Positions 2,907 to 26,484 of a DNA stretch of 32,000 nucleotides are shown piece after piece. Origin of the DNA: Candidatus Saccharimonadota bacterium (GTDB taxonomy: Bacteria; Patescibacteriota; Gracilibacteria; Absconditabacterales; Absconditicoccaceae); the NCBI GenBank assembly GCA_965231145.1, contig OZ246420.1, forward strand, positions 780,001 to 812,000, in the 5' to 3' direction. A model generated the notes under the pieces. It saw only the letters and a program-made list of their open reading frames with translations. It had not been told where the DNA came from and did no database searches. The number at the start of each line of letters is the position of its first letter. Within the stretch, counting starts at the first letter, position 1. The translations under genes were made by a program, and so were the position numbers.

Positions 2907-2965
2907 CTTAAAACTTAAATCTCAAACCTTAAAACAGTTTTTAGTTTTCAGATTTGAGTTTTAAG
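2907..2965. repeat. AT-rich imperfect hairpin with 7-nt periodic arms (locus A, truB-yraN spacer)
   Basis: The left arm is CTTAAAA CTTAAAT CTCAAAC CT and the right arm is AGTTTTC AGATTTG AGTTTTA AG. The arms are complementary at 20/23 positions. Confidence 0.7.
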
Positions 2966-2969
2966 ATAA

Positions 2970-3635
2970 TTAGTTAATAGTCCAATAGCCAGTCTCATTC
3001 TTGCTGAAAGTGATAAGATTATCAACTTCTGTCATTTTCCATGGACCGATACTGGTTCTACGAAGTTCGCGAATGACACCTCCCGTACCGAGCTGCTCAC
3101 CAAGCCAATGTGCGATAGAACGAATAAATGTCCCAGATCCTACGTCAAATGACACTTTGACCAATGGCCACGCATAGGAGATGATCTCATAATGATATAT
3201 ATCCATTTCACAATCTACCTTGATTTCTTTACCCGCACGTGCTGACTTATAGAGTCTTTTTCCTGCTACTTTTTTTGCACTGAACGAAGGAATAGGCAGC
3301 ACATATGATGGCACAAGTTTATCCAAATATTGTTTCAATAACACTCCCGTAACATGAGTATGATCGCCTTTAAATTGCTCAATTTGAGCATGATAATCAA
3401 TATCCCGTGTATCCGTCTTCACTGAAAGATCAATGACCGCTTCATATGATTTACCAAGACCTTGATACTCCTCTGCTTTTTTTGTATCTTCATCAGATAC
3501 AAGCACCATAAGACCAGTAGCAAGCGGATCGAGAGTTCCACAGTGTCCTACTTTTTTGTAACCAAAATGTTTTTTTACTTTATGTACGACATCGAAGCTT
3601 GTGATGCCGGTCGGTTTATCTGCAAATATGATCAT
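2970..3635 (-). CDS. truB: tRNA pseudouridine(55) synthase TruB
   Basis: Intact 221-aa ORF with no TGA. It carries the KPxGxTS and GHCGTLDPLATGLMVL catalytic-Asp motif. Confidence 0.9.
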   Translation of the reverse strand: MIIFADKPTGITSFDVVHKVKKHFGYKKVGHCGTLDPLATGLMVLVSDEDTKKAEEYQGLGKSYEAVIDLSVKTDTRDIDYHAQIEQFKGDHTHVTGVLLKQYLDKLVPSYVLPIPSFSAKKVAGKRLYKSARAGKEIKVDCEMDIYHYEIISYAWPLVKVSFDVGSGTFIRSIAHWLGEQLGTGGVIRELRRTSIGPWKMTEVDNLITFSKNETGYWTIN

Positions 3636-3654
3636 CGTTATCCTTTTTCCTTAG

Positions 3655-4146
3655 CTAAAATGTACATACTACTTCCTGAAGCTTACATGTGGCAGCGGCC
3701 ACCGAATAACATGCATGAAAATTTGTATTTTCCGTCGAGGTAATCTGCAACGAAGCGCCGCTATGTACCGTACAACCTACCGCATATGGGATTAATGTGA
3801 TATGAAAGCCTGATGTAGTTACTAGCGCACGGTCTATGAGAATTTCGCGAGAAAAAGGAGCGACAAGCTCCCCGGAACCGTACGTTGCTTGCAGGCTGGT
3901 TCCTGACAAAACGCCAAGCGAGAGATATCAGTATTTCACCCATCATGAAGAAAGATGAACGGAATTAGTCGTCGAAGCCTCTTGTAATGTATTTTGTATT
4001 GATGATGCAAAACGCTCTTTTGTATTTGCAAAACGTATCTTATCAGAAAATCAGCTTCCAAGATTAGTAACCATCGCAAGCACGATTCCTATGATCACAA
4101 TAGTAATCACTATCTCTATCAATGTAAATCATTTATTACGTTTCAT
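3655..4146 (-). CDS. type IV pilin / pseudopilin with prepilin-type N-terminal cleavage-methylation signal
   Basis: ATG at 4146 gives MKRNK-G-FTLIEIVITIVIIGIVLAMV. The -1 Gly of the G|FTLIE site is encoded by TGA 4129-4131. The frame stays open through further TGAs to TAG 3655-3657 (492 nt, 163 aa). The C-terminus contains Cys residues. Confidence 0.85.
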
Positions 4147-4154
4147 CGTATATA

Positions 4155-4250
4155 TATTCTAGATTCTAAATTTTGGATTTTGAATAATCTTTTATTAATG
4201 ATTCCTCCTTGTGTAATTTAGAATTTAGAATTCAACATTTCGAATTAATT
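4155..4250. repeat. AT-rich inverted repeat with 7-nt periodic arms (locus E, pilC-pilin spacer)
   Basis: The left side is TTCTAGA TTCTAAA TTTTGGA TTTTGAA and the right side is AATTTAG AATTTAG AATTCAA CATTTCG AATTAAT. The outer ~17-18 nt are complementary (attctagattctaaatt / aatttagaatttagaat). Confidence 0.6.
4156..4184 (-). promoter_or_regulatory. possible sigma70-like promoter for the pilin gene, implying a very short leader
   Basis: On the minus strand: TTCAAA (4184-4179), 17 nt, TAGAAT (4161-4156). The -10 ends 9 nt before ATG 4146. It lies inside the left arm of hairpin E. Confidence 0.35.
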
Positions 4251-4253
4251 ACG

Positions 4254-5348
4254 TTATGTTGTTTGAACTCCACCGAGAATAGTCGTAATAATACCAAATA
4301 CCGAAAATGCAATAAGCACCACTACTCAACCCACAAGCACAATCATGATAGGCTCCACGACTTTAGAAAGATTATTCAGCATCATCTCAAGATCTTCTTC
4401 ATAGACTTCGATCACATTACCAAGGGCTTCCGGAAGCTTTGCTGTATCCTCACCAACCTTTACTAACAATGCTGCGTTTGCTGGAATAATGTGCGTATAT
4501 GACAAAAATACCTCATGCATCGTTTGCCCGCTTCTTACCTGTGCAATCATGGCATCAAGAAACTCCTCATACGAACCGATGCGCACGATATCTTTGAGCA
4601 TCTGAAATGTCGAAATATAACTCATGCCGGCATATTGCATGATTCTCATATATCTGAAAAACTTTATCAGATAATAATATTTCGTCATCTTTCCAATCAA
4701 CGGAAGCTGCAACAACCTATTAAATCACCATCTTTTTCCTGCTTCACTCGAGAACACTACCGATGCTAAAAAACATACGACACCGAGCACGATAAGGATG
4801 ATCGCAACATTATTTTTCATAAAATCTGAAACCGCCATCATGGCGCGCGTTACCGCTGGCATCTCGATGCCGGGAAACTGCTGCGCGATAGAAAAGATTC
4901 CTGGAAGGATATTGATGAAAAGTACAAAAACCGCGATGATTGCTAAGATAAGCAACAATGCAGGATAGGTCATTGCACTAATGTATTTTGCCTGAAGATT
5001 ACGGAGAAAATGATATTCACGAGAAAGCGATGAAAGTACCTTAACGAGATTTCACGATGCTTCTCCCGATCTTACTATATGTACATCGGACGCATCAAAG
5101 TATTCAGGAAGCCTTGAAAGTGCATATGACAACTGGCGTCATTCTTTGAGCATGGTAGCAATATGTCTTCCAATATATCTTTGTGATGGGCTCTCTCCTC
5201 TCTGAGCGATCGTCTCTGCAGCTGCCAACAATGCTACTCATCCCTGAAGGAGATAAGCTAGCTCTCTAAACAAAAATATCTTATCCTTCGTCCCAAATCC
5301 TGCTTTCTCTCTTGTGGCAAGATAGTGACGAATTACTCTTTCAAACAT
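4254..5348 (-). CDS. pilC: type IV pilus / type II secretion platform protein (PilC/GspF family)
   Basis: ATG 5348 to TAA 4254-4256 (1095 nt, 364 aa). It fuses ORFs 4326-4715 and 4725-4973 with the upstream part across five TGAs. It has two GspF-type repeats and TM segments (..SGQTMHEVFLSY..IIPANAALLVKVGEDTAKLPEAL..). Confidence 0.85.
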
Positions 5349-5357
5349 ACAAACAAA

Positions 5358-5416
5358 CTAAAGACTTAAAACATAAAACTAAAAACAAGTTTTGGTATTA
5401 AGTTTTCAGTTTTAAG
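5358..5416. repeat. AT-rich imperfect hairpin with 7-nt periodic arms (locus B, pilO-like/pilC spacer)
   Basis: The left arm is CTAAAGA CTTAAAA CATAAAA CTAAAAA C and the right arm is GTTTTGG TATTA AGTTTTC AGTTTTA AG. The arms pair with a bulge. Confidence 0.6.
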
Positions 5417-5423
5417 ATAATAG

Positions 5424-6125
5424 TTATTTCATCATATAGCCATTCAGCTCAATCGTCACTGCCTGTCTCTCTTGATATTTAACGATATCATAGTTAACAG
5501 AATTAACAGTATAGAGCATAGGGAACTGAGGACTGAGAGTATTTTCTACATTGTATATAAATGCGAGGAGTCAGTTCTTATCAGCAAACTCTATCGTCAT
5601 CATAATTGGTATCCTTATAAGATTTTCTATCGTTTCCATCGTAGAGATATTTCCAAATGAGATACTTGTCACTACGCCGTTGAGCTGATTGGTAGATGAC
5701 TTGAGAAGATATTCGTTAATATTTGCGAGGATCTTCTTCTGGTCAAATGCCATCTTATCTCCTTCATTTTTCTGGAGCTGCAAAAATGCTCTCATCTGGG
5801 GTATCACTGGAACAAGTGTTTCAGGGATAGCGGTACATCCTTTTGTACTTAAGCAAGTGAGCAGTTCAGCTTTCTGCGTATTGATATCTTTAATAGCAAG
5901 AAGATCATTGACGACTTCTTTATACTCACGATCTTTTTGCATCTGCTGCGTCTGAAGCAGATCAACACTACGACTTGTCGCTTCATACTCTGCTGCAGTA
6001 TCCTGCATATATCCTCGGCTTAGTGCCATCACCAGAACAAGCACTATCACATAGAGCTTATATTTAATGGTCAGAACTACTCTCTGAGAGTCTTTTTCCA
6101 GATGATTATTTACTACCTGTTCCAT
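5424..6125 (-). CDS. PilO-like pilus assembly protein (TM anchor + coiled coil + C-terminal globular domain)
   Basis: ORF 5571-6125 continues through TGA 5571-5573 to TAA 5424-5426 (233 aa). The assignment rests on architecture and position between pilN-like and pilC, not on a recognised motif. Confidence 0.45.
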
Positions 6126-6654
6126 GGAGAGATATATCAGCAGTTAAAGTAAATGCAAAAACTTCACCATTTTTCTTATAGTCTTGGATCGCGACGTTCC
6201 TAATAAAGTCTAATTGTACAAACTGATCTATCACTCCATCCTTTGCATAAATATATGAAAGATTTGGTACTGTTCCTCTCAGACTTATCCCATCATAGTC
6301 GATCTTAAAATCAGAAAACTGTACGTTTCCTCCTCCAAGACTTTGAAGTGTTGTGAAGATCTGGATCACACGAGAGATACGATCGAGCCATGAACCAGCA
6401 TTTTGCGAGGCAACCAGTTTCTTACCTGCAAGATAGGTCATATAATCACTTGTATCATGAGCCTTCTGGATCTCTGCATTTTTTCCTGCTATATCTTCCT
6501 GCAGATTTTTCTGCTCTCCTACCATCACCTGGTTCATCGCAGCGTTGTAGCCCCAATATCCCACATACAGAATAAATACGAGCAGCACAAAAACATATAC
6601 TCTTTTCCACGGCAGACGCATTTTTTTTGCATCCGACATTATACTATTGGTCAT
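6106..6654 (-). CDS. PilN-like fimbrial assembly protein
   Basis: Intact 182-aa ORF. Its N-terminus KKMRLPWKR followed by a TM helix resembles the INLLPWR motif of PilN. A coiled coil follows. It overlaps the next gene by 20 nt. Confidence 0.5.
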   Translation of the reverse strand: MTNSIMSDAKKMRLPWKRVYVFVLLVFILYVGYWGYNAAMNQVMVGEQKNLQEDIAGKNAEIQKAHDTSDYMTYLAGKKLVASQNAGSWLDRISRVIQIFTTLQSLGGGNVQFSDFKIDYDGISLRGTVPNLSYIYAKDGVIDQFVQLDFIRNVAIQDYKKNGEVFAFTLTADISLHGTGSK

Positions 6655-6756
6655 AGAAAACGCTTATATCTAAAAATAAGTTATCACCCTTTTGGTATAG
6701 CGTTTTATCAGATGATTGCAAATAGAAAGCTCTTTACAAAACTCTTTTTATAAAAA

Positions 6757-6794
6757 GAAAAAACTCTCCTGGGGAGAGTTTCTGCCTTCGGCAG
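6757..6794 (-). terminator. tandem hairpin terminator downstream of yebC
   Basis: The minus strand reads CTGCCgaaGGCAG then AAACTCTCCccaGGAGAGTTTtttcttttt. One stem carries a UUCG-type loop, and a U-tract follows. Confidence 0.7.
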
Positions 6795-6809
6795 ATTATT
6801 TGATATGAA

Positions 6810-7562
6810 TTATGCAACGTTATGATAAATGCTATCGACATCTTCGTCTTCTTCGAGGGCATTGTAGAGTTCTTCAAAGGATTTCATGTCTTCGTCTGAA
6901 AGTGTGATTTCATTTTGTGGCAGATAGTGAATATCTGCATCTGCAAGACTATATCATAATTCCTCTATCCCCTTCTTCGTATTTACAAATGCTTCGTACG
7001 AAGTTATCACGCGACACTGCCCGGCTTCTTCCTGAAAGTCTTCGATATCAAGATTCATCAGATCCTCTTCTAATTGGTCTTTATCATAGGGAATAATCGT
7101 CTTTATCTCATTACCTTTTACGGTTTCTGTTTTAAGTTTTCCGTTAATGATGATCACCCCCTTTTGCGAAAATTGCCATGCGACTGCTCCTGGCTCTGCC
7201 CATGTACCACCCATTTTTCCTAAGATAGCGCGAACATTTGATGCGGTTCTATTGGTGTTTGAAGCGATACATTTAATATAAAGCGCAGATCCCGCAGGGC
7301 CATACCCTTCATACATAACTTCCTGAAGTTCCTGGCCTTCTACCTTTCCTGCTCCTTTCTTGAGCGCCTTATCTATGACTTCTTTTGGCAGACTATGGTA
7401 TCTTGCTTTTTGCAAAATAAGATCGAGTGCTGGGTTCATATGAGGATCGTCTCCTCACTTTCTGGCAGCCATCTCGATGAGCTTACCGATCCTTGAATAC
7501 GTTTTCGACTTTGCTGCATCACCTGCTGCCTTCTTTCCTGCAATACTATGTCGTCTTCACAT
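6810..7562 (-). CDS. yebC: YebC/PmpR-family DNA-binding transcriptional regulator
   Basis: ATG 7562 to TAA 6810-6812 (250 aa). The sequence MGRRHSIAGKKAAGDAAKSKTYSRIGKLIEMAARKGGDDPHMNPALDLILQKAR matches the family N-terminus. TGAs occur at 7557, 7455 (the Gly of GGDP) and 6954. Confidence 0.9.
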
Positions 7563-7591
7563 ATTTTACATACACATATTTCATAAAATGG

Positions 7592-7656
7592 CAGTTAGAT
7601 GTTAGAGTTTAGATGTTAGTAAAACTTGCCAAAATCTAAAATCTATAATCTAATTG
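7592..7656. repeat. hairpin with 7-nt periodic arms (locus D, rnpB-yebC spacer)
   Basis: The left arm is CAGTTAGATGTTAGAGTTTAGATGTTAG and the right arm is CCAAAATCTAAAATCTATAATCTAATTG. About 22/28 positions are complementary. The unit is TTAGAxx / xxTCTAA. Confidence 0.7.
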
Positions 7657-7680
7657 CTGTAAGAATATTAGTTAATAAGT

Positions 7681-8019
7681 GCTCTACCATAAGCCCGATT
7701 CTGTATTACGATGATATTTATCTTTGATAGCCTATAGCTACCTTTGTGCACGCCCCCGACAGCTGTCGGGGGACGCTTGCAACAAGCAGGGTTTACCACT
7801 CGAATGACAAAGTTGTCAGACTAAGAAGGAGTATCCCGACAGCTGTCGGGAACCTCCACGTTGCATCTTTCCTCAGCACGAGGCTAAGTAGTTTTCGTTT
7901 CTGTGGCACTTTCCTTTGCTCCGTATTCCGGACGTTCCATCAGCTGTTAGCTGCTGCCTTGTGTCTGTTGTCGAGACTTTCCTCCCCCGACAAAGTCGGG
8001 GGCATCACCATGGTAGAAC
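7681..8019 (-). ncRNA. rnpB: RNase P RNA (bacterial)
   Basis: This is a GC-rich island in AT-rich DNA. The minus strand contains CR-I GGGGGAGGAAAGUCUCG, GGAAAGUGCCACAGAAACGAAAAC, GGUAAACCC and CR-V ACAGAAUCGGGCUUAUGG. The 5' GUUCUACCAU pairs with the 3' AUGGUAGAGC to form P1. ORF 7746-8030 is an artefact inside it. Confidence 0.88.
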
Positions 8020-8056
8020 GCCGTAAATAGTATGAAAAACGGCCGACATTTTCAAG

Positions 8057-8084
8057 TTGAAAGCAGGAGTTGAATATATATAAT
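8057..8084 (+). promoter_or_regulatory. putative sigma70-like promoter upstream of secG
   Basis: TTGAAA (8057-8062), 16 nt, TATAAT (8079-8084). Confidence 0.45.
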
Positions 8085-8101
8085 GAAAGTCCTTTTTATA
8101 T

Positions 8102-8341
8102 ATGATACGAATCGATATGAAAACAGTGTTAATCGCGCTTATGTTCCTTGCTGGTATAATTTTTGTAATTTCAGTTATGCTGATGAGCCCGAAAGGAGGA
8201 CTCGGACTTGGTATTGGAGGTGTGAGCAGCAGCAATGAGTACGGAAGCAAGAAGTCTATCGAGTCAACGTTGAAAAAAGTTGCACTCGTCACTGGTATCA
8301 TTTTCGCCGCTATTGTATTGTACCTGCCTTACGCCAACTAA
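8102..8341 (+). CDS. secG: preprotein translocase subunit SecG
   Basis: The 79-aa ORF has two TM helices flanking a Gly-rich loop (SPKGGLGLGIGGVSSSNEYG). The true start may be the second ATG at 8117. Confidence 0.8.
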   Translation: MIRIDMKTVLIALMFLAGIIFVISVMLMSPKGGLGLGIGGVSSSNEYGSKKSIESTLKKVALVTGIIFAAIVLYLPYAN

Positions 8342-8378
8342 TGGCATTGGCATGGAGTTTATCCGCTTCCTGTAAAAG

Positions 8379-10310
8379 ATGTTACATATACGTCAGAAAT
8401 TAGTGAAATACGTTTTGGTATTTCTTTTTTTCGTCTGGCTCCTCGGATTAGGCTACCTGTACTATCAGTACGTTATTGCCTCTTCGGAAACAGTAGCTAC
8501 AAAAGGTGGAACCCTCGTAGAAGGTGTTACTACCAATGTTTCATACCTCCCGTATGTTAGAAATACTGATGCAGATTTGTTCTATCAGGGCTTACTCTAC
8601 AAAGCATGTATGACTTATTTCAGTCGTGGTTATCAGATTATTTATGATAACGATATCTGTAAGGTTATTACTCAGGATAATAAAACCTTCCTTGTATCAC
8701 TCAATACAACTGGCTCGTGGTCTGACAGCACTCCAATTACCATAGACGATGTACTTTTCACCTATCAGGATATCATTAAGGATAACTTCCGAGATATTCC
8801 AAATCTCAGAAATTACGATAAGATTGATGTGGAAAAAATTTCTGACAACTCGCTGAGAGTGACATTTCCTGGAGCATCAGTAGATAACTTCAATTTCTTT
8901 ACTAACTATATACTTCCTAAACATAAACTGAAAGGCGTAGGTTTGAACTACTATCTCAATGAGTTCAAAGAGCAGCCGGTAACGAGCAGCTGTGGTGCAC
9001 TGAGAAGCTGATCAGCAGATGAAACCAGTCTTGTGTTTGATGTGAGCGCATGTGAAAAAGCGTGGATCAAATACTATCAGGTAAAGAAAGTAGATTCTAT
9101 CGAAGGAATTACCTCATCAAATCTCGTGGATATTTCAGTAAGTCCGCACTCACTCGAATGATACAAAGATAATAAGCTCATCCAAAATAAGTATATTGGT
9201 CTCTTCTTCAATATGCAAAGAGGCAGACTGAGCATCTATGGAAGAAAGAACTTTATTGCTCTCGTCAATCATCATCTCTTTAAAGATGATAACAACCCAG
9301 GAATTATTAAAGAAAATTTCCTCTTTGATTCATTTCCAAAGACAGTCACCGATAAAACAGCTATTATGTCAGCAGTAACTACCCTGAGCAATACAGGACT
9401 CATACTCAGTTCATGAGCTGCTCCTGAGGCAATTCCAGAAACAGTGACCCTAGACAATGCAGGCGAGAAAAGAGAGTTTACTCTGGGAGCTATTGAAAAA
9501 GAATTTATGCTCAATATCAAAACATCGAAACCTTATAATTCCCTTTCAATTATTGCAAACGATCAGCTACAAGACCAAGCAGATAGTTCGACAAATAGCA
9601 TTTCGCTTTCTCTTGTTCCTGGTTTCAATCTCTTTGATGGTATCAATACCTATGTTATCCACGGCATGGGAAAAGAGAGCGATGAACTTGTTGCTACTAT
9701 CGTTATCTACTATAAAGCGCCATATGTTCTATCAAAGAGCGCTGCTATCAAAGTTATCTACTATGCAGGAGATCCTTTTATGGTCGACCTTATTAACAAG
9801 ATCAGAACTTTTCTCGGTTGGGAAAACATAGCAGGATACTTCGACTTCGAAGGCATGAGTTCCCCAGAAGACTTTGAAGGAAAGCTTGCTTCTAAGGATT
9901 ATGATATTACGGTGAGAGGTATTGATCTTTGACTCAAAAAAGATATTTCTAACTTATTACTCACGGACAATCCTATCATCAACCCATCACTCTATATCAA
10001 TGCAAATCTCGCATCACAAATAAATCAGTTCTTTGCAACAAGCAACGTAGGAAGCCAAAACAATATCAAGAGAGAGATTGATAGACTCTATCTCAACGAT
10101 CTTCCATTTGCCCTCCTTGGAAAGACTTATTCACTCCTCCACTCTAAGCCATACATCTTTATTGATCCGGCTACTGTCTTTTACGAATCAGACTACAGAA
10201 GGAAAATCCTGCACAATGTGGTCATCGCAAGCAGACCTATTATCAAGAAGGCTACGGTAGTTGATATCAGAGCATTCTTCCAGTTTGTTCGCAACAAGAT
10301 AACCAACTAA
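8379..10310 (+). CDS. ABC-transporter substrate-binding protein, family 5 (peptide/nickel type)-like, N-terminally membrane anchored
   Basis: A frame-3 reading frame runs from 8379 to TAA 10308-10310 (643 aa). It fuses ORFs 8379-9011, 9213-9416 and 9444-9932 with the 3' part across TGAs. It has an N-terminal TM helix, then KGGTLVEG......TFLVSLNTTGSWSDSTPITIDDVLFTYQ, typical of SBP family 5. Confidence 0.6.
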
Positions 10311-10323
10311 TAGACATAGATTC

Positions 10324-10360
10324 TAGATAGAGATAGAGGCTGTACCTATGTCTCTGTCTA
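10324..10360 (+). repeat. hairpin with 7-nt periodic arms (locus I, SBP-gatB spacer), likely a terminator/insulator
   Basis: TAGATAGAGATAGAGG ctgta CCTATGTCTCTGTCTA pairs at 13/16 Watson-Crick positions plus two U.G pairs on the + strand RNA. TAG occurs at 10311, 10317, 10324, 10328 and 10334, closing all three frames. Confidence 0.65.
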
Positions 10361-10408
10361 GCATCTATATCTTGAAATAGGTGTTTTATTGTTTCCTCTT
10401 TTATAAGA

Positions 10409-11842: not shown

Positions 11843-11849
11843 ATGTTCC

Positions 11850-11886: not shown

Positions 11887-11916
11887 TAATACTGTTCTTC
11901 CCGTATATAATGTACA

Positions 11917-11945
11917 AGAAAACCACCCGTCTGGGTGGTTTTCTT
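11917..11945. terminator. bidirectional rho-independent terminator between convergent genes
   Basis: agAAAACCACCCgtctGGGTGGTTTTct. It is followed by a second small hairpin, GACGCgaaaGCGTC (11949-11962). Confidence 0.8.
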
Positions 11946-11986
11946 GTAGACGCGAAAGCGTCCGATGAAATATGAATGAGATTTTT

Positions 11987-13654: not shown

Positions 13655-13732
13655 GTATCATTTTGTATCAGAAGGTAAATATAGTTCTTCTTATAGTCAA
13701 AGTATCTTCTTTAATCAATACCAGCTCTCATA

Positions 13733-14398: not shown

Positions 14399-14431
14399 GT
14401 TTGCATCTTATTTTGAATTATAAATGAGCAA

Positions 14432-14504
14432 CTAAAATCTAAAGACCAAAACCTAAAAACTTTTTATTAGAAACATTTTTAGTCTTATGTTTTCAGTTTT
14501 AAGG
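14432..14504. repeat. AT-rich inverted heptad arrays (locus C, spacer upstream of sufD-like)
   Basis: The left side is CTAAAAT CTAAAGA CCAAAAC CTAAAAA C and the right side is ATTTTTAG TCTTATG TTTTCAG TTTTAAG. Complementarity is only about 20/29. Confidence 0.5.
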
Positions 14505-14507
14505 TTA

Positions 14508-14915
14508 TTAGTCAATGCGTGTAAATCTGGATATTAATTGTTCATTTTTTAATACATTGCCAACAAAGTCAGCTGTTGATCTCACGATAACCGAAACATG
14601 AGGTGGGAAACCTTCAATAGTATACAATGGCTTATAGATAATAACTTCTTCATTTTCGGTAAATGTATCTACCTGCATAATACCAACATCTTTTGTCTTA
14701 TACTCTACTCATTGGTATTGTAATGCTTTTCACATATTTTCTCTGGCACTCATGACGATTAGTCATGACAATCATAGTAACGGCTCGCATACAATAACTT
14801 CACTCATATCTTCAGGCTGAGAGCCAATAAAATGAGCTTTATTGACAATCTCATAGGTATGATCTGCTCACCCAACGGATTTATAGTGCCTGTATTTTTC
14901 TCCGACATTCACCAT
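14508..14915 (-). CDS. hypothetical protein with a DUF1653-like N-terminus
   Basis: ATG 14915 to TAA 14508-14510 (135 aa) with five in-frame TGAs. It is absent from the standard-code ORF track. GEKYRHYKS....YEIV..A resembles the DUF1653 YRHYKG motif, recalled from memory only. Confidence 0.55.
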
Positions 14916-15051
14916 TAAGTACGCCGACAAAGGCTAAATGTTGCCTTTTTACGACTTTTTGACTGTTTTACAATGAAAAAACATGTCACATTTTACAGGA
15001 GAATCCGTATATAAGATACACAAGAACTATTTTATCACTTTACTCATAGTT

Positions 15052-15999
15052 ATGAAAAAACTTATCGCAATAGCGTCAATGGCTATACTTGGCGTTGCAT
15101 CTGTTAGCTCAACACTTGCTGCATCACCTGAACCTATTTCTTCTGTAGATCTTATCACATGGTGACATGCCAATGGTATCACAAAATTTGATACATGGGC
15201 TGCGTTCAATGCTACAGCTCCCGTCACAAGAGAGCAAGCAGCAAAGATGATCACAACATGGATAGGCTTACATCACGAGCTTAACTGGGGTATGTCATCA
15301 GAAACATGTACATTTAACGATACAGGAAGCATAGACTCGACACTTGTATACAGTGCAGACTCAGCATGTGCATACGGACTTTTCAAGGGATACAAAGGAT
15401 CTTTTCTTCCAAAGAACTATATTACGAAAGAAGATGTGACAACTCTTATCACAAGAGCCGCTGGGAAACTTCCGACATATACTCATCATACTAACAACAT
15501 CCCTCATATTGCAGGATGGCATCTTACAAGAGGAGAACTCCTCAATGCACTCTATCATATCAACGCGATCGTAGAATGACAGATTGCAATTGAGAAAGAT
15601 GCGATGTTATCAGCAGCAGAAGCTAACATGAACAAAGCAAAACAGCTCTGGGACAGCAAAAATATCAACCACTACATGGTCAAACAACAGCATAGTTGTT
15701 TCTGCACACCAAACAGCACTCATCCTGTACAGTTTGAAGTGAAGAATGATGCAGTAGTGACAGGATCACTTGAGGATATATCTGAAACAGACAAGATCCC
15801 TGCAAGCCAGCTTACGATAGATCCTATGACAGTAGAAAAGGCATTTGTTTTCATCCAGGATGCTATAGACAGAAAAGCGGATAACATCACCGTAGAATAT
15901 GATGCAAAGCTTGGAAATCCTACGAAAATAAATATTGATTACAGCACAATGATGGCTGATGAAGAAGCTTACTACACGTATAGCGTGACTGAGCTTTAG
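15052..15999 (+). CDS. secreted protein with two SLH-like repeats and a Cys-containing C-terminal domain
   Basis: ATG 15052 (MKKLIAIASMAILGVASVSSTLAASPEP) to TAG 15997-15999 (315 aa). It fuses three frame-1 ORFs across TGA 15163 and 15577. The SLH-like segments are ..GITKFDTWAAFNATAPVTREQAAKMI.. and ..YGLFKGYKGSFLPKNYITKEDVTTLITRA.. Confidence 0.7.
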
Positions 16000-16025
16000 T
16001 ACTCATAGGCACGACCTCACAATAA

Positions 16026-16053
16026 GAAAAAAGAGCCTTTCGGCTCTTTTTTT
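16026..16053. terminator. bidirectional rho-independent terminator
   Basis: aaaaaAAGAGCCtttcGGCTCTTttttt lies between convergent genes. Confidence 0.85.
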
Positions 16054-16057
16054 AGTA

Positions 16058-16465
16058 TTATTGTACTTCTATTTCTAAAGGTAGTTGCAATGCGTCGGCT
16101 AACTCTTTACTATATTGCATAAACAAGCTTCTATGACACAAATGTTTTTCTTCCGTACCTTCCATACATAATACAGTAATATTTTCATGGAGCGCTCTTT
16201 GGATGAGGGCTATGACCTTTTCTCTTTGTGTCGTGATATATGTGACATACTCAGATGCTAATTGTTCAAATGGGATTTCCTTTCTTCTATATGCTCCTAT
16301 GACTTTGGGAGGCACAGCAAACTCCTTCATATGTTCATCATACAAATCAGCAGTCAACCTTGGATCTGGTGTCACTCCATCATTTAATGTATGACGAGAC
16401 ATGATGGAAATTCTTGTCCCATCGCTTTCTTCTTTTGGAGCTAATATGGATTTACTTTTGAGCAT
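16058..16465 (-). CDS. DUF488-family protein
   Basis: Intact 135-aa ORF with no TGA. Its length and pattern (..GTRISIMSRHTL........DEHMKEFAVP...) resemble DUF488/YeaO-like proteins. The assignment is from memory only. Confidence 0.55.
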   Translation of the reverse strand: MLKSKSILAPKEESDGTRISIMSRHTLNDGVTPDPRLTADLYDEHMKEFAVPPKVIGAYRRKEIPFEQLASEYVTYITTQREKVIALIQRALHENITVLCMEGTEEKHLCHRSLFMQYSKELADALQLPLEIEVQ

Positions 16466-16494
16466 CCTACGACCAATGGACTAAATGATAATTT

Positions 16495-16522
16495 ATTATA
16501 TAGTTCAAAGATGCTTTTACAA
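16495..16522 (-). promoter_or_regulatory. putative promoter for the DUF488 gene
   Basis: On the minus strand: TTGTAA (16522-16517), 16 nt, TATAAT (16500-16495). Confidence 0.4.
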
Positions 16523-16560
16523 TAAAAAACTCATTAGTATCCAATGCAAATACTATAAAA

Positions 16561-16589
16561 GACGCATTAATAATGCGTCCCTACAATAT
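16561..16589 (-). repeat. REP-like element: ATATTGTAGGGAC + hairpin GACGCATTA-T-TAATGCGTC (R2)
   Basis: The + strand reads GACGCATTAaTAATGCGTC CCTAC AATAT. On the minus strand the same 13-mer as R1 (ATATTGTAGGGAC) starts 7 nt after the stop of the 16597-16977 gene. Confidence 0.65.
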
Positions 16590-16596
16590 TGCATAT

Positions 16597-16977
16597 TTAT
16601 ATTCTCACCGTCGTCCAACTCACTCTTTTCTGGTCGATTGCATTTTTTATCATGGTTTCATTTTTATTTAACTGGCTAGTGCCAGTCTTTATCTCGATAA
16701 AGGCGATTTCGCGGACCTGACCTTCACTCAATCCGTCAAAAGCAATGTAGTCTACTCCTTTGCCCAAAAATACCAGATCTTTGTAATTATAGGGAAAGTT
16801 TGGGAGCAAAGGAGCGATCTTCTCGCTGACATAGCCTAAAGTAACAGCGCGAGACTTAGCAACAGCATCTTTACGATGTCATCTCGTCGCCTGCCAAAAT
16901 ACCAATTTTGCCATAAGATATCCTATGATCACACCAACGATAATTCCTATGATAATATAGCCCATATTTGTTGACAT
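16597..16977 (-). CDS. membrane-anchored endonuclease-like protein (archaeal Holliday-junction-resolvase-related, COG4741-like)
   Basis: ATG 16977 to TAA 16597-16599 (126 aa) with one TGA. It has an N-terminal TM helix (MGYIIIGIIVGVIIGYLMA), then ..VDYIAFDGLSEGQVREIAFIEIKTGTSQL.. Confidence 0.5.
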
Positions 16978-17121
16978 ATTGCTTGAAATGAGTCGTTAAA
17001 TACTTACATATAATGGTATGCATTACTTTTTCAACCTACGATTGGCTACATCCTCCAGCAACTAATTTCTGTGGATATTAGATTTTTGTGGTTCAATTTT
17101 TAACTCGTATACTCATACAGC

Positions 17122-18393
17122 ATGTTAGACCCTAGATATATCAGAGAAAATCTCGATCTTATAAAACAAGTATGTAAGGATAAAAATAGCAAACCAGACC
17201 TCGATGGATTTGCAGCATTATACGATGAAGTAAAAGCTCTTCAGCAGCAAGAACAAGAATTAAACACACAGAAAAATGCTGCAGCAAAAGAGCAAAATGC
17301 TGAACTTGGAAAGCAGATCAAAGAAAAGATGCAGGCACTTGCAGAGATTCTTCCTGCAAAGCAAAAAGCACTCAATGAAATTCTCTGGAAGATACCAAAC
17401 ACCTACTCTGCTGATACTCCGCTCGGTGCAGATGACAGCGAAAATCAGGTGCTTCGCACCTGGGGAACGCCGAAGAAGTTCCCATTTGCGGTGAAAGACC
17501 ACGTTGAGCTTGGAACAGCACTCGATATATTAGATTTTGAAAGTGCGTGAAAAATATCAGGAAGTAGATTTGTCTTTTTGAAAAACAATCTCGTAAAACT
17601 CCAGTTTGCGCTTATTCAGCGGGTTATGGATACACTGACAAATCAGGAGGTTATCGATGAGATCATCAAGAAAAATAATCTGAAAGTAAAAAATACGCCG
17701 TTCAGCCTCGTGTTACCGCCATTTTTCATGAAAATGGAAGTCATGGATAAGATGGGAAGACTCAATCCAAAAGATGAGAGATACTGCTATGAAGAAGATG
17801 GAATTGTATTAAATGGTTCTGCAGAACATGTGCTCTGACCATTACAGATGGATAATATGATTGCTGAAGCAGAGCTTCCGATAAGATATCTTGGCTACTC
17901 TACTGCATTTAGAAGAGAGGCTGGAAGTTATGGTAAAGATACGAAAGGTATGATAAGAATGCATCAGTTTGATAAACTGGAAATGGAAAGTTTTTGCTTA
18001 CCGGAAGATGGACAAGCAGAACAGGATTTCATGATCGCCATCCAGGAGTATATGATGCAGCAGTTAGAGATACCATATCATGTGTTGATCTGCTGTACAG
18101 GAGACATGGGAGATTGTGATTATCGTCATATCGATATTGAAGCATGGATTCCAAGTCAGGAGAAATATCGCGAGACACACAGCGGTGACTATATGACAGA
18201 CTATCAGGCAAGAAGAATGAACATTAGATATAAGAAAGCTGACGGAGAAAAAGGCTATGTGCACATGAATGATGCAACTGCTTTTGCGTTGAGTAGAACA
18301 CTCGTAGCAATCCTCGAAAACAATCAGCAGGAAGATGGTTCTATCACTGTACCAAAGGTGTTACAAAAGTGGGTTGGAAGCGACAAGCTTTAA
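17122..18393 (+). CDS. serS: seryl-tRNA synthetase
   Basis: Three frame-1 ORFs are joined across TGA 17548 and 17836 (423 aa). It has an N-terminal coiled-coil arm and class II motifs (..FRREAGSYGKDTKGMIRMHQFDKLE.., ..NDATAFALSRTLVAILENNQ..). Confidence 0.93.
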
Positions 18394-18412
18394 ATTATAA
18401 AACATCTTAATA

Positions 18413-19090
18413 ATGACTTACTGCCAAGTATACATATATTGGGGATGTTCTTTTTTCGATAGTAATCTTTTTCAAACTATAGTAACAATTATAGTTTGAT
18501 TAATTGCGGGTTTAATTACATATAAAATTTATAAAAATCAAATCAAAGACAATAAAGAATCGTATGCTCAGCTGCTATATCTATACATCCAAAATATAGA
18601 AAACATTGCGAATACTATCAAAAGAATTGTTCCTTTAGGAATTCCATCATTAGTTGAATTAGATCAAATTAATATAGAATATGATGATATAGAATTTAAT
18701 AAAATAAAATCACAATTTATAAAAGACCTATCTTATCAAGAAATGACAACGTTAGAGAATTTTTTTGATAAATTCAAAACTATGCAACAACGAGTGATGA
18801 GATATAAAGATATTTCTCGGAAATGGCAGGAAGAAAGAGCTTATGAATTACAGAAAAAATTAATAGAACTAGCCGACAGACACTTAAACAATGATTCCAC
18901 ACAAACCCTAGAAGCTCGTATATTAAGTTATCAAACAGAAAAAACCGCGATTACTGACTTGATACATAATGAGAATTATTGGTACTATTCGATGCATATT
19001 GGTCGCGATCTTTTAAATGCTGCAAACCAGATGCCACCCATTATTAATACTCCATTGGGAGAAAAAATTAAAAAAATTGCAAAAATTTAA
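18413..19090 (+). CDS. hypothetical membrane-anchored protein (very AT-rich gene)
   Basis: The frame of ORF 18743-19090 is open back to ATG 18413 when TGA 18497-18499 is read as Gly inside a TM helix (LFQTIVTIIVGLIAGLITY). 225 aa, no family recognised. The start is uncertain. Confidence 0.5.
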
Positions 19091-19095
19091 TTATA

Positions 19096-19803
19096 ATGGA
19101 TACCATGCAGCAGCACATTACTTTTAAGGCGTGAAATGAGACATTGGCAGCGCTCATCTATAAGCAACATGAGGAAGATATTCCTACTGCCCTTTTTCTG
19201 CATGGTGCAAGTACGGCGATGAAAGATAGGATCAAGTATTTTGCTGAGGAGTTTGTCGAAAGAGATATGCCCCTTATGGCGATAGATTTTTCGGGACATG
19301 GTGAAAGCACAGGAAAACTCAATGAATCGAGCCTCCAGAAAAGAATCCATGAAGCGCATGCAGCCATGGAATTTTTGGATCCGGAGAAAAAGCTGACGAT
19401 TATTGGATCGAGCATGGGAGGACATATTGCCCTGGAGATGTTGAAGACGTGAAGAGTGGAAACACTTATCCTCTTTTGTCCTGCGGTCTATTCGGATGAA
19501 TCTATTCCTCTACAGTTTGATAGCTGATTTACTGAAGCCATCAGAAAAGAAAACAGCTGGGAAAGTTCATCACTTTTTGATGAGTTACAAAAATTCACCG
19601 GAAGACTCTTTATCATCATCTGAGACCAAGATAGCGTCATACCTCATGGAGTTCTTACGAAGCTTGTAGCTTCAGCGACTAAAGCCAAGCAAAAAGAACT
19701 TATCTTCGTGCCATGAGCATCGCACGCTATCCATAGTTATTTGGAAAGCCATCCGGAAGATTTTGCTCGCGTCAGAGAAAAAATATTTGCGCATATAGAT
19801 TAG
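19096..19803 (+). CDS. alpha/beta-fold hydrolase
   Basis: ATG 19096 to TAG 19801-19803 (235 aa) with several in-frame TGAs. It has the LFLHGAS oxyanion region, the nucleophile elbow GSSMGG and a C-terminal ..ASHAIH.. His. Confidence 0.7.
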
Positions 19804-19842
19804 TGTCATCATACACACATACTTTTATATTTACCTATCACC

Positions 19843-20037
19843 ATGCAAAAACTCAATTTCGAACAAGCATATCTTCGCCTCAAAGAGATTCATGAGATGT
19901 TAGAGACAAATGAACTTATGGATATTGAGAAAATCATTGCTCTCCAGAAGGAAGCGAAAGAGCTCTATGAACAATTGGATCATATGCTCAAAAAAGCAGA
20001 AATGATTGACGATGAAGAAAAGAAGGTAAAAAAATAG
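19843..20037 (+). CDS. xseB: exodeoxyribonuclease VII small subunit
   Basis: The 64-aa ORF has the pattern FEQAYLRLKEIHEMLE...L.....ALQKEAKELYEQLDHMLKKAE, typical of XseB. Confidence 0.7.
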   Translation: MQKLNFEQAYLRLKEIHEMLETNELMDIEKIIALQKEAKELYEQLDHMLKKAEMIDDEEKKVKK

Positions 20038-20039
20038 AG

Positions 20040-20059
20040 AGACGTCCCGCGGGACGTCT
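20040..20059. repeat. perfect 20-nt GC-rich palindrome (REP-like, R3), probable xseB terminator
   Basis: AGACGTCCCG|CGGGACGTCT lies immediately after the xseB TAG. A decayed half-copy (..GGCATGTCTC aatttacaaa) sits at about 20081-20105. Confidence 0.6.
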
Positions 20060-20124
20060 GAAGGTAAATTCATAAGAAATGGCGTCGCGGCATGTCTCAA
20101 TTTACAAAAATAAAAAACAAAAAA

Positions 20125-20709
20125 ATGATCAAACCAAGCAAATTTCGCGGCAAATATCGCATTGCGTCAGCGAGATTACAATGATACGATTATACAGCCG
20201 ATGGCACATATTTCATCACCATATGTGTCAGATGAACCGACGTTTTTCGTCCCCATTATTTTGGCAAAATTGTTGATGGAACGATGATGTTAAACGAATT
20301 GGGCAAAATAGCAGAAGACGAATTATTGCAAACGGAAGCCAAAAGACCATATGTTTCCATTCCATCGTATATGATTATGCCCGATCATGTGCATTTTATT
20401 TTGAATATCACATCAATGAACCCGGTAGAGACGCACCGTGGTGCGTCTCCCCAATGCGATAATGATAAATATGAAACGTTTTTCATAAATGAGAAGTGCC
20501 GCGGCACTTCTCTACAAATGCGTCCGGGTTCATTGTGATCCATCATTAATCATTTTAAATGATCGGTTTCGCGTTATGCACGTAAACACAATATCCCTTT
20601 CAAACGACAGCCAAATTATTATGAACATATAATCATGGATGATAAAACCCTGTTTAGAATTATGGAATATATTGAAAATAATCCACGCAATCGAAAAAAC
20701 GATTTGTAA
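20125..20709 (+). CDS. IS200/IS605-type Y1 HUH transposase-like protein (REP-associated tyrosine transposase, RAYT-like)
   Basis: ATG 20125 to TAA 20707-20709 (194 aa) with four in-frame TGAs. It has YRIASARLQGYDYTADGTYFITICV, the HUH motif MPDHVHFIL and the C-terminal NYYEHII catalytic-Tyr region. Confidence 0.8.
20425..20449 (+). repeat. REP-like GTAG + 10-bp hairpin inside the RAYT-like ORF (R4)
   Basis: GTAGAGACGCACC gt GGTGCGTCTC, translated as VETHRGAS. Confidence 0.7.
20491..20515 (-). repeat. REP-like GTAG + 22-nt perfect palindrome inside the RAYT-like ORF, in inverted orientation (R5)
   Basis: The + strand reads GAGAAGTGCCG|CGGCACTTCTC TAC. The minus strand reads GTAGAGAAGTGCCGCGGCACTTCTC. 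It is translated as EKCRGTSLQ. Confidence 0.7.
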
Positions 20710-20739
20710 TATGATGCTATTAATTGGTAATTGATTTCA

Positions 20740-21999
20740 ATGCATAAAATAAAACATCTCCAAAATCACGCATTCCGATGGATTATCATTGCGCTTGTTA
20801 GCGTCATGTTTTGCGTACTGTTAGGCGGCTATCGGAGAAACGTCCAAGCGACAAATGAAAGACTCACTCAGCGAACATGACCCATGAAAGAGCTCACCAA
20901 TTCACTCCTCACCCACTCCGGCAGCAGCGACAATCTGCTGCGCAGCAGTATTGCTTCCTACGAAAGCATGATCTCATGACTTGATATGACTCCAGTGGTG
21001 AGTAATGGTCTACATCAGTACGTAAGTAATCTCTATACTGTCGCAGGAGCATTTGAAGCTGCAAAAGCTGCTCTTCCTCAGACTAATGACTGGGAATATT
21101 TGTTTAACAGAGGTACAATTTCTCTTCTCGAGACAGTAACCTACATGTCCTGAGATATAATAAAGCTTTACTCTGGAAGACAAACCATCGCGGACGCAGT
21201 CCGCTATCTCTCGGGCGCCGTACTCAGCACGAGCGATGAGAAAAATATGTACATGAGCAAACACAATGTCAGTGTCGCCCTTGCAGCACAGATAGGAGTA
21301 GAAGTAAAGATCTGTACTGAGAATTATCGTTTCTTTGCCGATACGCGATGAGATATAGAAGACATATTGAGTGCGCTCCAAGAAAGTTACCAAGACCAGC
21401 TTACTCTGCTAAGTACTGAACAAAGTAATCAATGTATACGTGAATATAGAGCTCAGCTTTCAGGCTATGTGGCAACACTACCAGAGAAAATAGCACTGAG
21501 CATGACCATGAACATATGAGCTACAGAGAAGAAAAACAAGTACATGCTAGAGCCACTCCAATGTCCCATGAATATCAATATGTATGATGAGATTGTGTCG
21601 CTTCGTAGCTATCACGATGAATTACAAGTAGCAGCGGAAAAAGACGCAGTCGTGAGAACAATGATTATCAGTGGAAATATGATCGATCTCGTAGCGCTTT
21701 GTGAAAGTAGTAGCAGCGGAGAAAACAATCAAAGTAGTGTTGGAGATCTACTCTCTGCACTTACGGGTAGCCAGGAATTGCTTGAAGAAGGCGAGAACAT
21801 CGATACTACAAGTATGACAGGTTCATATGAGTTGCTCCCTGAAGATACACAGGAACTCGTCAACGACATCTATCAGAAAAATATCCAGTACATACAAACG
21901 ATGCAACAGACGCAGCAGGATAATAACTATCGTCCATTAAAACGTTTGCAGGAGCTCTTCAAAGAGTTCTACTGAGATACTCAACAATTTCTCAAGTAA
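20740..21999 (+). CDS. hypothetical membrane-anchored protein with a Gln/acidic-rich C-terminus
   Basis: ATG 20740 to TAA 21997-21999 (419 aa). Frame 1 is joined across several TGAs to ORF 21544-21975. It has an N-terminal TM helix (FRWIIIALVSVMFCVLLGGY). ORF 21010-21393 (-) is a shadow ORF. Confidence 0.6.
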
Positions 22000-22018
22000 C
22001 TTAGTGACACTTAGCACA

Positions 22019-22056
22019 TAGCAACTAGCAGATAGCATGCTAATTGCTAACTGCTA
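22019..22056. repeat. hairpin with 7-nt periodic arms (locus H, spacer upstream of lgt)
   Basis: TAGCAAC TAGCAGA TAGCA | TGCTAAT TGCTAAC TGCTA is centred on GCATGC, with about 15/19 positions complementary. The heptad arrays extend over 22001-22085. TAG at 22002, 22012, 22019, 22026 and 22033 covers all three frames. Confidence 0.65.
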
Positions 22057-26471: not shown

Positions 26472-26484
26472 AATACATCTATAC

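Follow-up and report, generated by a model that had tools for sequence, protein, structure and literature searches.

Heptanucleotide-array palindromes in the spacers of a code-25 Absconditabacterales genome

Introduction

Seven intergenic spacers in a 32,000-nt stretch of DNA from a Candidatus Saccharimonadota bacterium (Gracilibacteria; Absconditabacterales; contig OZ246420.1, positions 780,001 to 812,000 of the forward strand; hereafter the window) each contain an imperfect inverted repeat whose arms seem to be built from 7-nt units. What are these elements, and do they serve the junctions at which they lie? The initial annotation of the window regarded them as a lineage-specific intercistronic element, confined to spacers between co-directional genes, that might act as a terminator or attenuator, as an RNA-processing site, or as a pad of stop codons closing all three reading frames.

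We find that the feature is real and extends well beyond the window, while the proposed mechanism is largely not supported. The arms are degenerate tandem heptanucleotides that usually carry a YTAR core (CTAA, TTAG, TTAA or CTAG). We regard the chances as about evenly balanced that the hairpins are dispersed palindromic repeats made of heptamer arrays, of the general kind of STRR, REP and Rickettsia palindromic elements (RPEs), which form a few species-specific, AT-rich families of about 60–100 bp. The families are multi-copy and have common ends, they turn over between species, they occur in all types of spacer, their copies in rsmE are purged of stop codons, and their two strands fold equally well; together these observations mark them as repeats that originate and multiply as DNA, and not as a conserved signal. 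The elements thus have the look of repeat DNA that spreads, not of a stop signal made for the purpose.

Methods

Logan assemblies carried the sequence of the same genome beyond the window, by 2.7 kb on its left and 5.5 kb on its right, for a total of about 40 kb; the Logan flanks are 100% identical to the window throughout the overlap. Three near relatives (L001–L003), with YebC proteins 67–83% identical and gene order kept, were used for orthologous junctions. A distant set of 80 code-25 loci (665 kb, RsmE 29–41% identical) came from a metagenome scan with RsmE alignment. Relatives found by protein search carry the labels Absconditabacterales, SR1 or Gracilibacteria. Genes in the 80 loci were called with our own code-25 procedure, which is crude; every locus is anchored on rsmE, and a few are near-duplicates. 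In the self-match scan a segment was scored where at least 15 of 21 positions were equal at lag p.

The window is read in genetic code 25, in which TGA is a sense codon (glycine); TGA occurs in frame in most of the window genes, which upholds the earlier description of a genome with two stop codons. With TAA and TAG as the only stops, about 38 long genes are resolved.

Results

Heptamer palindromes in the window

The seven elements, with their arms and the complementarity of those arms, are as follows (MFE, minimum free energy; z, RNAfold score of the transcribed strand against dinucleotide shuffles).

2907–2965, minus strand: element A, family F1, (CTNAAAA)n loop (TTTTNAG)n, in the spacer from the truB stop (2970) to the yraN start (2899); arms 2907–2935 and 2937–2965, 86% complementary; MFE -18.6, z -4.1.
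4153–4250, minus strand: element E, family F2, arms (AATTCNA)n and (TNGAATT)n with a 42-nt loop, in the spacer from the pilC stop (4254) to the pilin start (4146); arms 4156–4172 and 4215–4231, 94% complementary.
5355–5425, minus strand: element B, family F1, between the pilO-like stop (5424) and the pilC start (5348); arms 5356–5386 and 5395–5425, 74% complementary.
7591–7657, minus strand: element D, family F3, (TTAGATN)n and (NATCTAA)n, in the spacer from the rnpB 3' end (7675) to the yebC start (7562); arms 7591–7622 and 7626–7657, 78% complementary.
10312–10372, plus strand: element I, a TAGA/TCTA-rich hairpin that begins at the stop of a substrate-binding-protein gene (10308–10310) and lies upstream of gatB (10409); arms 10312–10339 and 10345–10372, 82% complementary; MFE -33.8, z -4.5.
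14432–14506, minus strand: element C, family F1, in the spacer from the stop of a DUF1653 gene (14508) to a sufD-like start (14398); seen by Tandem Repeats Finder (TRF) and as an RNAfold stem.
22002–22078, plus strand: element H, (TAGCANN)n and (NNTGCTA)n, in the spacer from the stop of a hypothetical gene (21997–21999) to the lgt start (22102); arms 22013–22037 and 22045–22069, 76% complementary.

Imperfect inverted repeats, with arms of 25–32 nt that are 74–94% complementary, were recovered by an inverted-repeat search at all seven sites, and folding agrees. TRF, run blind, reported period-7 arrays at six of them, mostly one per arm (A 2906–2962; E 4215–4232; B 5355–5386; D 7594–7619 and 7631–7653; C 14432–14458 and 14476–14513; H 22012–22056). 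The arrays at A, B, C, D, E and H, and at two further sites within rsmE, comprise 2.6–4.6 units of 7 nt, and the units are degenerate, with 73–87% identity within arrays. Heptamer arms had been claimed for all seven elements; the claim holds for these six but not for I, which is loosely periodic, was not called by TRF, and has irregularly spaced TAGA motifs (6, 7, 4, 6) that are not strictly 7-periodic. Alternative arm pairings displaced by 7 nt make several registers possible, as expected from periodic arms.

Period 7 stands out in the window as a whole. The self-match scan found 11 period-7 segments against a block-shuffle mean of 0.42; nine of the 11 fall within the non-coding 10% of the window. 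The other lags from 3 to 14 gave 0–3 segments each, apart from the harmonic at 14.

Folding of the transcribed strand, a check proposed at the outset, gave z-scores from -1.4 to -4.5 across the seven elements: besides those of I and A, they are -3.5 for B, -3.1 for D, -2.7 for H, -1.7 for E and -1.4 for C, and the stems have folding energies of -15 to -34 kcal/mol. The elements have 21–36% G+C and lengths of 59–77 nt, and their stems consist almost wholly of A–T pairs. A comparison of the sense and antisense strands showed no consistent bias in stability; since both strands fold equally well, there is no sign of RNA-specific selection. The 5' arms begin 0–8 nt past the upstream stop codon. No Rfam covariance model overlaps any element, either at the gathering score or at E≤1.

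Gene names used here are those of the initial annotation and are upheld by Pfam and Rfam: Pfam identifies UPF0102/YraN, a pilin N-methylation motif, T2SSF (PilC), SufBD, DUF1653 and LGT among the window proteins, and the single Rfam match at gathering score in the window is the RNase P RNA (7675–8021, minus strand). ARAGORN found no tRNA or tmRNA in the window.

Two other interpretations were considered and rejected. Sites found by a sigma-70 promoter scan are no more numerous than in shuffles and none is characteristic of the elements. A DNA-uptake sequence, suggested by the nearby type IV pilus genes, does not fit families that have no common 10–12-mer. As a separate observation, the loop of E (window 4187–4214) holds AAGGAGGAAT on the transcribed strand, one of very few strings in the window that resemble a Shine–Dalgarno (SD) sequence; the pilin start is about 70 nt away, and no start codon follows the string.

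Families and further copies

Elements A, B and C belong to one family, F1, which has two more copies in the approximately 40 kb. The outer end CTTAAAACT is common to the five F1 copies and, as the 5' end, reads CTTAAAACT[GC]AAA in A, B and C, which have a common outer end (T)TATCTTAAAACT[GC]AAA and the unit CTNAAAA/TTTTNAG; TTATCTTAAAACTGAAAAC is also common to B, C and A. The earlier statement that the heptamer differs from locus to locus therefore fails for these three. A and a copy at about 34241–34281 are 88% identical over 42 nt. F2 consists of E and one other copy, the stop-proximal arm of E being 94% identical over 32 nt to 32229–32260. F3 consists of D and a copy 2.6 kb to the left of the window (94% identical over 34 nt and 92% over 24 nt), and the two have identical non-periodic ends, GCAGTTAGAT...ATCTAATTGC. 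H also has a second copy, at about 36207–36233 (93% identical over 27 nt), which leaves I as the sole element with no second copy in about 40 kb. None of the elements gave a family match at E<0.01 in the 665 kb of relatives (blastn-short). Terminal inverted repeats common to copies, as in miniature inverted-repeat transposable elements (MITEs), can be described (F3 GCAGTTAGAT...ATCTAATTGC; F1 CTTAAAACT), but this is trivially true of any palindrome. A search of the F1 flanks for target-site duplications gave nothing beyond TA or TAA-like bases, which say little in DNA so rich in A+T.

The elements also mark the ends of assemblies. Two independent short-read assemblies (L004 and L005) stop exactly at the second F3 copy, 2707 nt to the left of the window, and a third (L006) stops inside element E at window position 4179, indicating that the elements fragment assemblies in the manner of short-read assemblers at repeats. 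Three assemblies from one study (ERR4405439-41) do not differ at a single base in A, E, B or D (100% identity), and for two of them the identity extends to I.

Confinement to co-directional junctions, as the initial annotation had it, does not survive the wider sample. The F1 copy at about 34224–34281 occupies the spacer of a divergent gene pair, whose start codons are 10 nt and 32 nt away; the F2 half copy at 32229–32260 lies in a convergent spacer, 13 nt past the RNase J stop and beside two ordinary terminators; and two arrays are inside rsmE. A possible unpaired copy of F1 type is also present in the window:

319–347, plus strand: T-rich half array (TAGTTTT AAGATTT GTATTTT TAGTTTT) in the 45-nt spacer before an ABC transporter start (358).

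This half array was read from the sequence and falls under the TRF and self-match thresholds, and is hence weak.

Copies inside rsmE

The two arrays within the rsmE coding sequence are as follows.

27364–27399 (TRF 27368–27395), minus strand: F1-type A-rich half array, period 7 by TRF with 80% matches, encoding NSKLKAENST.
26943–26982 (TRF 26952–26982), minus strand: F2-type half array in the variable loop before the GPEGG motif, encoding IIQHLEFKIQN.

The array at 27364–27399 is 95% identical to element A over 20 nt and has no in-frame stop; its units read CTCAAAA, CTCAAAG, CTGAAAA and CTCAACA, and the variants that would create TAA are missing. It sits within a 13-residue insertion missing from the seven closest RsmE homologues aligned (P0002-P0010), which have 232–239 residues against 245 here; remoter homologues retain 4–5 residues at this point. 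For the array at 26943–26982 the counterpart is the stop-proximal arm of E, to which it is about 81% identical when aligned; TTCTAAATTCTAAAT of E reads TTCAAAATTCAAAAT in rsmE, and the TAA triplets of E become CAA or AAA.

In seven other genomes the same surface loop before GPEGG of this 16S rRNA methyltransferase carries in-frame period-7 arrays made of other units (L012 887–927, L015 7294–7331, L019 1239–1271, L026 481–537 and L083 4544–4578), as inverted pairs in two cases (L042 1266–1333 and L080 342–416). The sole frame-closing heptamer of the L026 array reads CAA, not TAA, and the L015 unit family AACYTGN occurs in the RsmE loop and also in a spacer. The loop may be a hot spot for insertion, or merely the one gene sampled at every locus. 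A dispersed palindromic repeat thus occurs in frame within a protein gene, as in elements of the Rickettsia type, in the rsmE insertion here and in the seven other genomes. A GGTCGC..GCGACC hairpin in rsmE, also considered as a repeat insertion, was rejected, as it encodes the conserved GDxxxxQ segment and is probably native.

Orthologous junctions in near relatives

Junctions that carry elements here are short in the near relatives. The truB–yraN spacer is 70 nt long here, 11 nt in L001 and 32 nt in L002, and if the palindrome of A is subtracted 11 nt are left, the length of the L001 spacer. The pilO–pilC spacer is 75 nt here and about 28 nt and 27 nt in L001 and L002 respectively. The DUF1653–sufD spacer is 109 nt here; in L001 the two genes overlap (TAATG) and in L002 they are adjacent (TAGATG), so that about 100 nt, containing element C, have been gained here. 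D is not present in the rnpB–yebC spacers of L001–L003, and these three genomes hold just 1–3 weak period-7 arrays per 20 kb. Short or overlapping orthologous junctions in the relatives indicate that the elements are recent insertions, and they are not conserved at orthologous junctions in the way that a needed signal would be. L001, the closest relative, has a repeat grain of its own, 13 nt where the window genome has 7 nt: two neighbouring tandem arrays of such units, with 2.5 and 5.6 copies (90–96% matches), occupy 2375–2479, in the spacer by the g20 homologue.

Period 7 in distant code-25 relatives

Although the sequences themselves are not found in the distant relatives, the architecture is. 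The non-coding 11% of the 665 kb contains 71 period-7 arrays, compared with 12–28 for each of periods 4–6 and 8–12; in spacers, period 7 is three to five times as frequent as other periods. For 19 of the 71 a strong inverted partner lies within 110 nt, as it does for none of the non-coding arrays of period 5, 8, 10 or 11. Clear hairpins with other units are found in L008 (GCTAAGT/ACTTAGC), in L036 and L028 (AATTAAG/CTTAATT, up to 12 units) and in L016/L017. TAA or TAG occurs on both strands of the consensus unit in 56% of period-7 arrays (19–25% expected), and the YTAR tetranucleotide in 55% (17–22% expected); neither excess is seen at periods 5, 8 and 11, while period 10 (n=13) is somewhat above random. 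The TAA/TAG-bearing heptamers noticed in the window are therefore enriched clade-wide, and the earlier view of a lineage-specific intercistronic element is borne out to the extent that a real, lineage-restricted repeat architecture exists, with no match in Rfam.

Position and strand are related. Of 24 arrays whose end is no more than 15 nt from a start codon, 20 are T-rich on the sense strand; of 13 that begin no more than 15 nt past a stop, 12 are A-rich (the background after stops being only A 0.39 and T 0.35). An array is present in 13% of spacers between co-directional genes, in 14% of divergent spacers and in 6% of convergent ones. Paired arrays able to form hairpins number seven in co-directional spacers and none elsewhere at the threshold used, and one hairpin, L036 8272–8363, does lie in a convergent spacer. 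In relatives, arrays of the hairpin type thus prefer co-directional spacers (7/7); arrays overall are equally common in divergent spacers and rarer in convergent ones.

Among 621 start codons from all loci, 4.8% are preceded by an SD-like motif; the figure for a control window is 5.2%. The composition of leaders passes from T-rich at -24 to -12 to A-rich at -11 to -3. With SD-like motifs at background and T-rich leaders, the clade appears to initiate translation without SD pairing. Just downstream of rsmE in several distant genomes, a conserved motif of about 20 nt, TTATTATGAACTATTGTAAT, lies between two heptamer arrays (L008 10720–10775; L010 11507–11566 and 14274–14338; L026 698–744). It precedes a gene starting M(I/L)KSLIKKI and may be a promoter (TTGTAA, 17 nt, TATAAT-like).

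Terminators and frame closure

A terminator scan flagged none of the seven elements, which have no G+C-rich stem. It did flag 16026–16053, 6759–6783 and 24452–24475; the sites at about 2121–2152 and 11917–11945 were missed by the scan, yet fold strongly. The four convergent gene ends that had been assigned classical terminators are therefore each flagged or strongly folding, but such terminators are not confined to convergent ends, since a GC stem followed by a T-tract is present at the co-directional junction after yebC (6759–6795). A second co-directional terminator, at about 26470–26520, was seen by eye only; it is unflagged by the scan and lies outside the folded part. The gene that it follows (26541–26678, minus strand) encodes a 45-residue Lys/Ala-rich basic protein (MVAKKKAAKKAAPKKAAKK...), and consists of a 12/27/51-nt tandem repeat inside which a Logan contig ends. 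The protein has no Pfam match and may be a histone-H1-like DNA-binding protein.

The TAG triplets reported at H (22002, 22012, 22019, 22026 and 22033) and at I (10311, 10317, 10324, 10328 and 10334) are exactly where they were said to be, and all three frames close within 22 nt of the stop at H, 20 nt at I and 19 nt at one F1 copy. Rapid closure does not extend to A, B, C and E, which need 55–88 nt and so do no better than the medians of 58 nt for all genes, 73 nt for genes with no element and 64 nt for relatives.

Discussion

Relation to known repeats

Heptanucleotides are the commonest long simple repeats in bacteria, and slippage has been proposed as their cause (PMC4679880, PMC4692102). 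Intergenic heptanucleotide arrays, including inverted pairs, have been described in cyanobacteria, Xanthomonas, Beggiatoaceae and Haemophilus (PMC4692102, PMC4679880, PMC12721329), and for density of inverted repeats Gracilibacteria have been placed second among all phyla (bioRxiv 10.1101/2024.09.29.615628), with which the abundance of palindromes here agrees. The initial annotation did not recognize a described repeat family, which is right for these sequences and this clade, but the class is known (PMC4692102, PMC4679880, PMC12721329); in the literature covered, which is incomplete, we found no description of such arrays for SR1, Absconditabacteria or Gracilibacteria.

The nearest likeness is to STRR and the GGGAATC repeats of Xanthomonas, which are also tandem 7-nt units in 3–5 or more copies, strongly over-represented relative to other unit lengths, mostly intergenic and of unresolved function (PMC4692102); inverted pairs with the capacity for stem–loops have been recorded in Xanthomonas (PMC4692102; Mrazek 2007 via PMC4679880). 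The elements described here have head-to-tail 7-nt units (I excepted), a period-7 excess and a mainly non-coding location, as in the STRR-type class. They differ in coming from code-25 Gracilibacteria/Absconditabacterales, in having AT-rich, YTAR-bearing units where those are G-rich, and, in this genome, in being palindromic as a rule, in the coexistence of several families of unit, and in the common non-periodic ends of copies. Their units (CTNAAAA, AATTCNA, TTAGATN, TAGCANN) are not those of STRR in the strict sense, which belong to heterocystous cyanobacteria (e.g. CCCCAGT). The TAACTGA repeats of marine Beggiatoaceae, some cyanobacteria and Bacteroidetes are likewise stop-containing heptamers in 2–6 copies, mostly located a few nucleotides upstream of SD-less starts, with occasional in-frame genic copies in the stop-free orientation (PMC4679880). 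They are, however, one fixed heptamer, nearly always in direct arrays (one inverted case in 170; PMC4679880), whereas the present elements are built from many heptamers and are often inverted pairs that lie against the upstream stop codon as well. In the Haemophilus influenzae hmw1A/hmw2A genes one arm of a long transcript hairpin consists of an (ATCTTTC)n array; RNase III cleaves this hairpin, which also influences expression, although this is a single phase-variable locus with perfect repeats that pair with a non-repeat G-rich arm (PMC12721329); the elements here occupy many loci, have degenerate units and periodicity in both arms, and show no length variation across three samples. They are not members of strict STRR, REP, intrinsic terminators or any Rfam family. 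What is known, then, is the class of intergenic heptanucleotide arrays, sometimes in inverted pairs, and the behaviour of the present elements resembles that of REP and Rickettsia palindromic elements.

REP and BIME sequences, which are mobilized by RAYT proteins, are short, abundant intergenic palindromes behind operon stops that fold in the mRNA and affect stability and upstream translation. REPs are 20–40 nt long and GC-rich, with a GTAG head and no internal periodicity. The heptamer hairpins are likewise short palindromes close behind stop codons between genes, but in the window they have no GTAG head, have low G+C (21–36%) and are longer (59–77 nt). A separate family of GACGC..GCGTC hairpins in the window fits REP better, with 4 matches against 0.04 expected. 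Such hairpins are at 11949–11962, 16561–16579, 20040–20059, 20430–20447 and 29469–29486, several of them with a GTAG head by eye; a gene of the IS200-like Y1 transposase family (window 20125–20709, plus strand) accompanies them, two of the hairpins being inside the transposase gene and one in the 3' part of a uracil-DNA glycosylase gene. This looks like a REP/RAYT pair. The separate presence of a REP-like family with its Y1 transposase marks the heptamer hairpins as a distinct class. Rickettsia palindromic elements, which Ogata et al. reportedly described in 2000, are said to be dispersed palindromes of a reduced genome, present in spacers and in frame at tolerant gene sites. RPEs are 100–150 bp long, with no 7-nt substructure, and in the rsmE gene of the present genome the copies are limited to single arms (half copies); inverted pairs do occur in that loop in two relatives.

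Origin and maintenance

If the elements are spreading repeat DNA, arrays would arise and grow by replication slippage of 7 nt, a unit length known to be favoured in bacteria, while the complementarity of the arms would be maintained through intrastrand template switching. Copies would spread to new sites and would last only at places where the damage is slight. A palindrome that lands between co-transcribed genes may be tolerated because it would fold in the mRNA as a 25–32 bp AU-rich hairpin; placed 0–8 nt past the stop, such a hairpin would loop the insert out and bring the next start codon back near the terminating ribosome. The preference for A-rich arrays after stops and T-rich arrays before starts may be a filter set by SD-less initiation. 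Long stems could plausibly serve as RNase III or 3'-end-protecting structures, like enterobacterial REP, but as a consequence and not as the reason for their existence.

Several points weigh against this account. No change in array length was seen in the three assemblies of one study, and no ongoing slippage was observed; the degeneracy of the arrays also disfavours slippage. The apparent sizes of the families are extrapolated from about 40 kb of genome. No transposase matching the elements, target-site duplication or other mobility signature was found in those 40 kb or at the element flanks. The YTAR excess and the strict strand rule exceed the needs of a purely neutral element and could indicate a selected role, and the strong bias of hairpin-type arrays to co-directional spacers fits function as well as it fits a tolerance filter. 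The sample of relatives has the limits given above: crude gene calls, loci all taken around rsmE, and some near-duplicates. A selected function could thus apply; it is an unproven reading that the strand rule and the YTAR excess keep alive.

Alternative explanations

A functional alternative, which we think unlikely, is that these are translation signals in a clade that lacks SD pairing: the T-rich array would be a leader for the ribosome (e.g. protein S1) or another RNA-binding protein, the A-rich array an anti-leader, and the hairpin a device that couples cistrons, making downstream translation depend on a ribosome that finishes the upstream gene and melts the stem. The background level of SD-like motifs, the T-rich leaders, the bias of arrays near starts and stops, the frequencies of arrays by spacer type (with the paired ones in relatives co-directional only) and a 5' arm that begins inside the footprint of the terminating ribosome all suit such a role, which resembles proposals for the TAACTGA repeats and for Nostoc heptamers by start codons (PMC4679880; bioRxiv 10.1101/2022.06.06.494920). 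Yet the orthologous genes in L001 and L002 do without arrays, no more than about 4% of genes carry one at the start, copies lie in a convergent spacer and inside coding sequence, F3 has the reversed arm order, and the heptamer varies between genomes, with no single binding motif apparent beyond YTAR. We hold it somewhat less probable still that the elements are selected RNA structures in polycistronic transcripts, whether partial terminators or attenuators, RNase III sites or 3'-end stabilizers, that set the levels of neighbouring cistrons. Arms of 25–32 nt with significant z-scores, a position between cistrons and, at D, directly 3' of rnpB, and in F1, H and I an A-/purine-rich arm that precedes a U-/pyrimidine-rich one, like a bidirectional terminator, are consistent with this, and the RNase III-cut 5'-untranslated-region hairpin of hmw, one of whose arms is (ATCTTTC)n, is a precedent (PMC12721329). 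The stems, however, have almost no G–C pairs and escape the terminator scan, the genome has ordinary GC-stem and T-tract terminators even at co-directional junctions, the transcribed strand folds no better than its complement, positions are not conserved between species, and one copy is in a divergent spacer, where there is nothing to terminate.

Two further explanations appear considerably weaker. Purely local expansion, in which each array slipped in place with no copying between sites, is highly improbable: the favoured status of heptanucleotides among long simple repeats of bacteria (PMC4679880, PMC4692102), the way arrays track local base composition before starts, and the solitary state of I would all agree with it, but distant copies have common non-periodic ends or near-identical stretches (D, E and H with their second copies, and the ends of F1), one family occurs both in spacers and in rsmE, and assemblies break at the elements. 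The three-frame stop pad of the initial annotation, in which TAA/TAG heptamers would end any ribosome in any frame in a two-stop genome, is to our mind the least probable of all. It draws on the rapid closure at H, I and one F1 copy, on the clade-wide excess of units with stop triplets on both strands, and on coding-sequence copies that have lost exactly their in-frame stops. As a general role it fails at A, B, C and E, which are slow to close, positions are not conserved, and copies occur elsewhere, many arrays preceding starts in divergent spacers where there is no upstream frame to stop; some arrays have no stop triplets at all (e.g. TTTTTCA in L014), the tight junctions of relatives need no pad, and the idea accounts neither for the palindrome nor for a period of 7 as against 4, 5 or 8.

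A bolder combination of these ideas, possible but to be held as doubtful, is that code-25 Gracilibacteria/Absconditabacterales share a hitherto undescribed kind of repeat that shapes their genomes, in which YTAR-centred heptanucleotide arrays have spread as palindromes into gene junctions and tolerant protein loops (among them the RsmE loop, affected in many lineages) and have been co-opted as an intercistronic grammar of SD-less translation, with an A-rich anti-leader, a U-rich leader and a coupling hairpin.

Significance

On the reading of spreading repeat DNA that we favour, these ultra-small, uncultured code-25 bacteria would not be simply streamlined; a repeat class with a fixed 7-nt grain would be actively remodelling the spacers and also some protein loops. 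For work on such genomes there are practical consequences: short-read assemblies break at the elements, and gene calls made under code 11 come out inflated or split. The elements would also supply a concrete sequence basis for the high inverted-repeat density reported for Gracilibacteria, and the strand rule, with arrays A-rich after stops, T-rich before starts and paired between co-transcribed genes, would offer a testable handle on the translation of operons without SD sequences.

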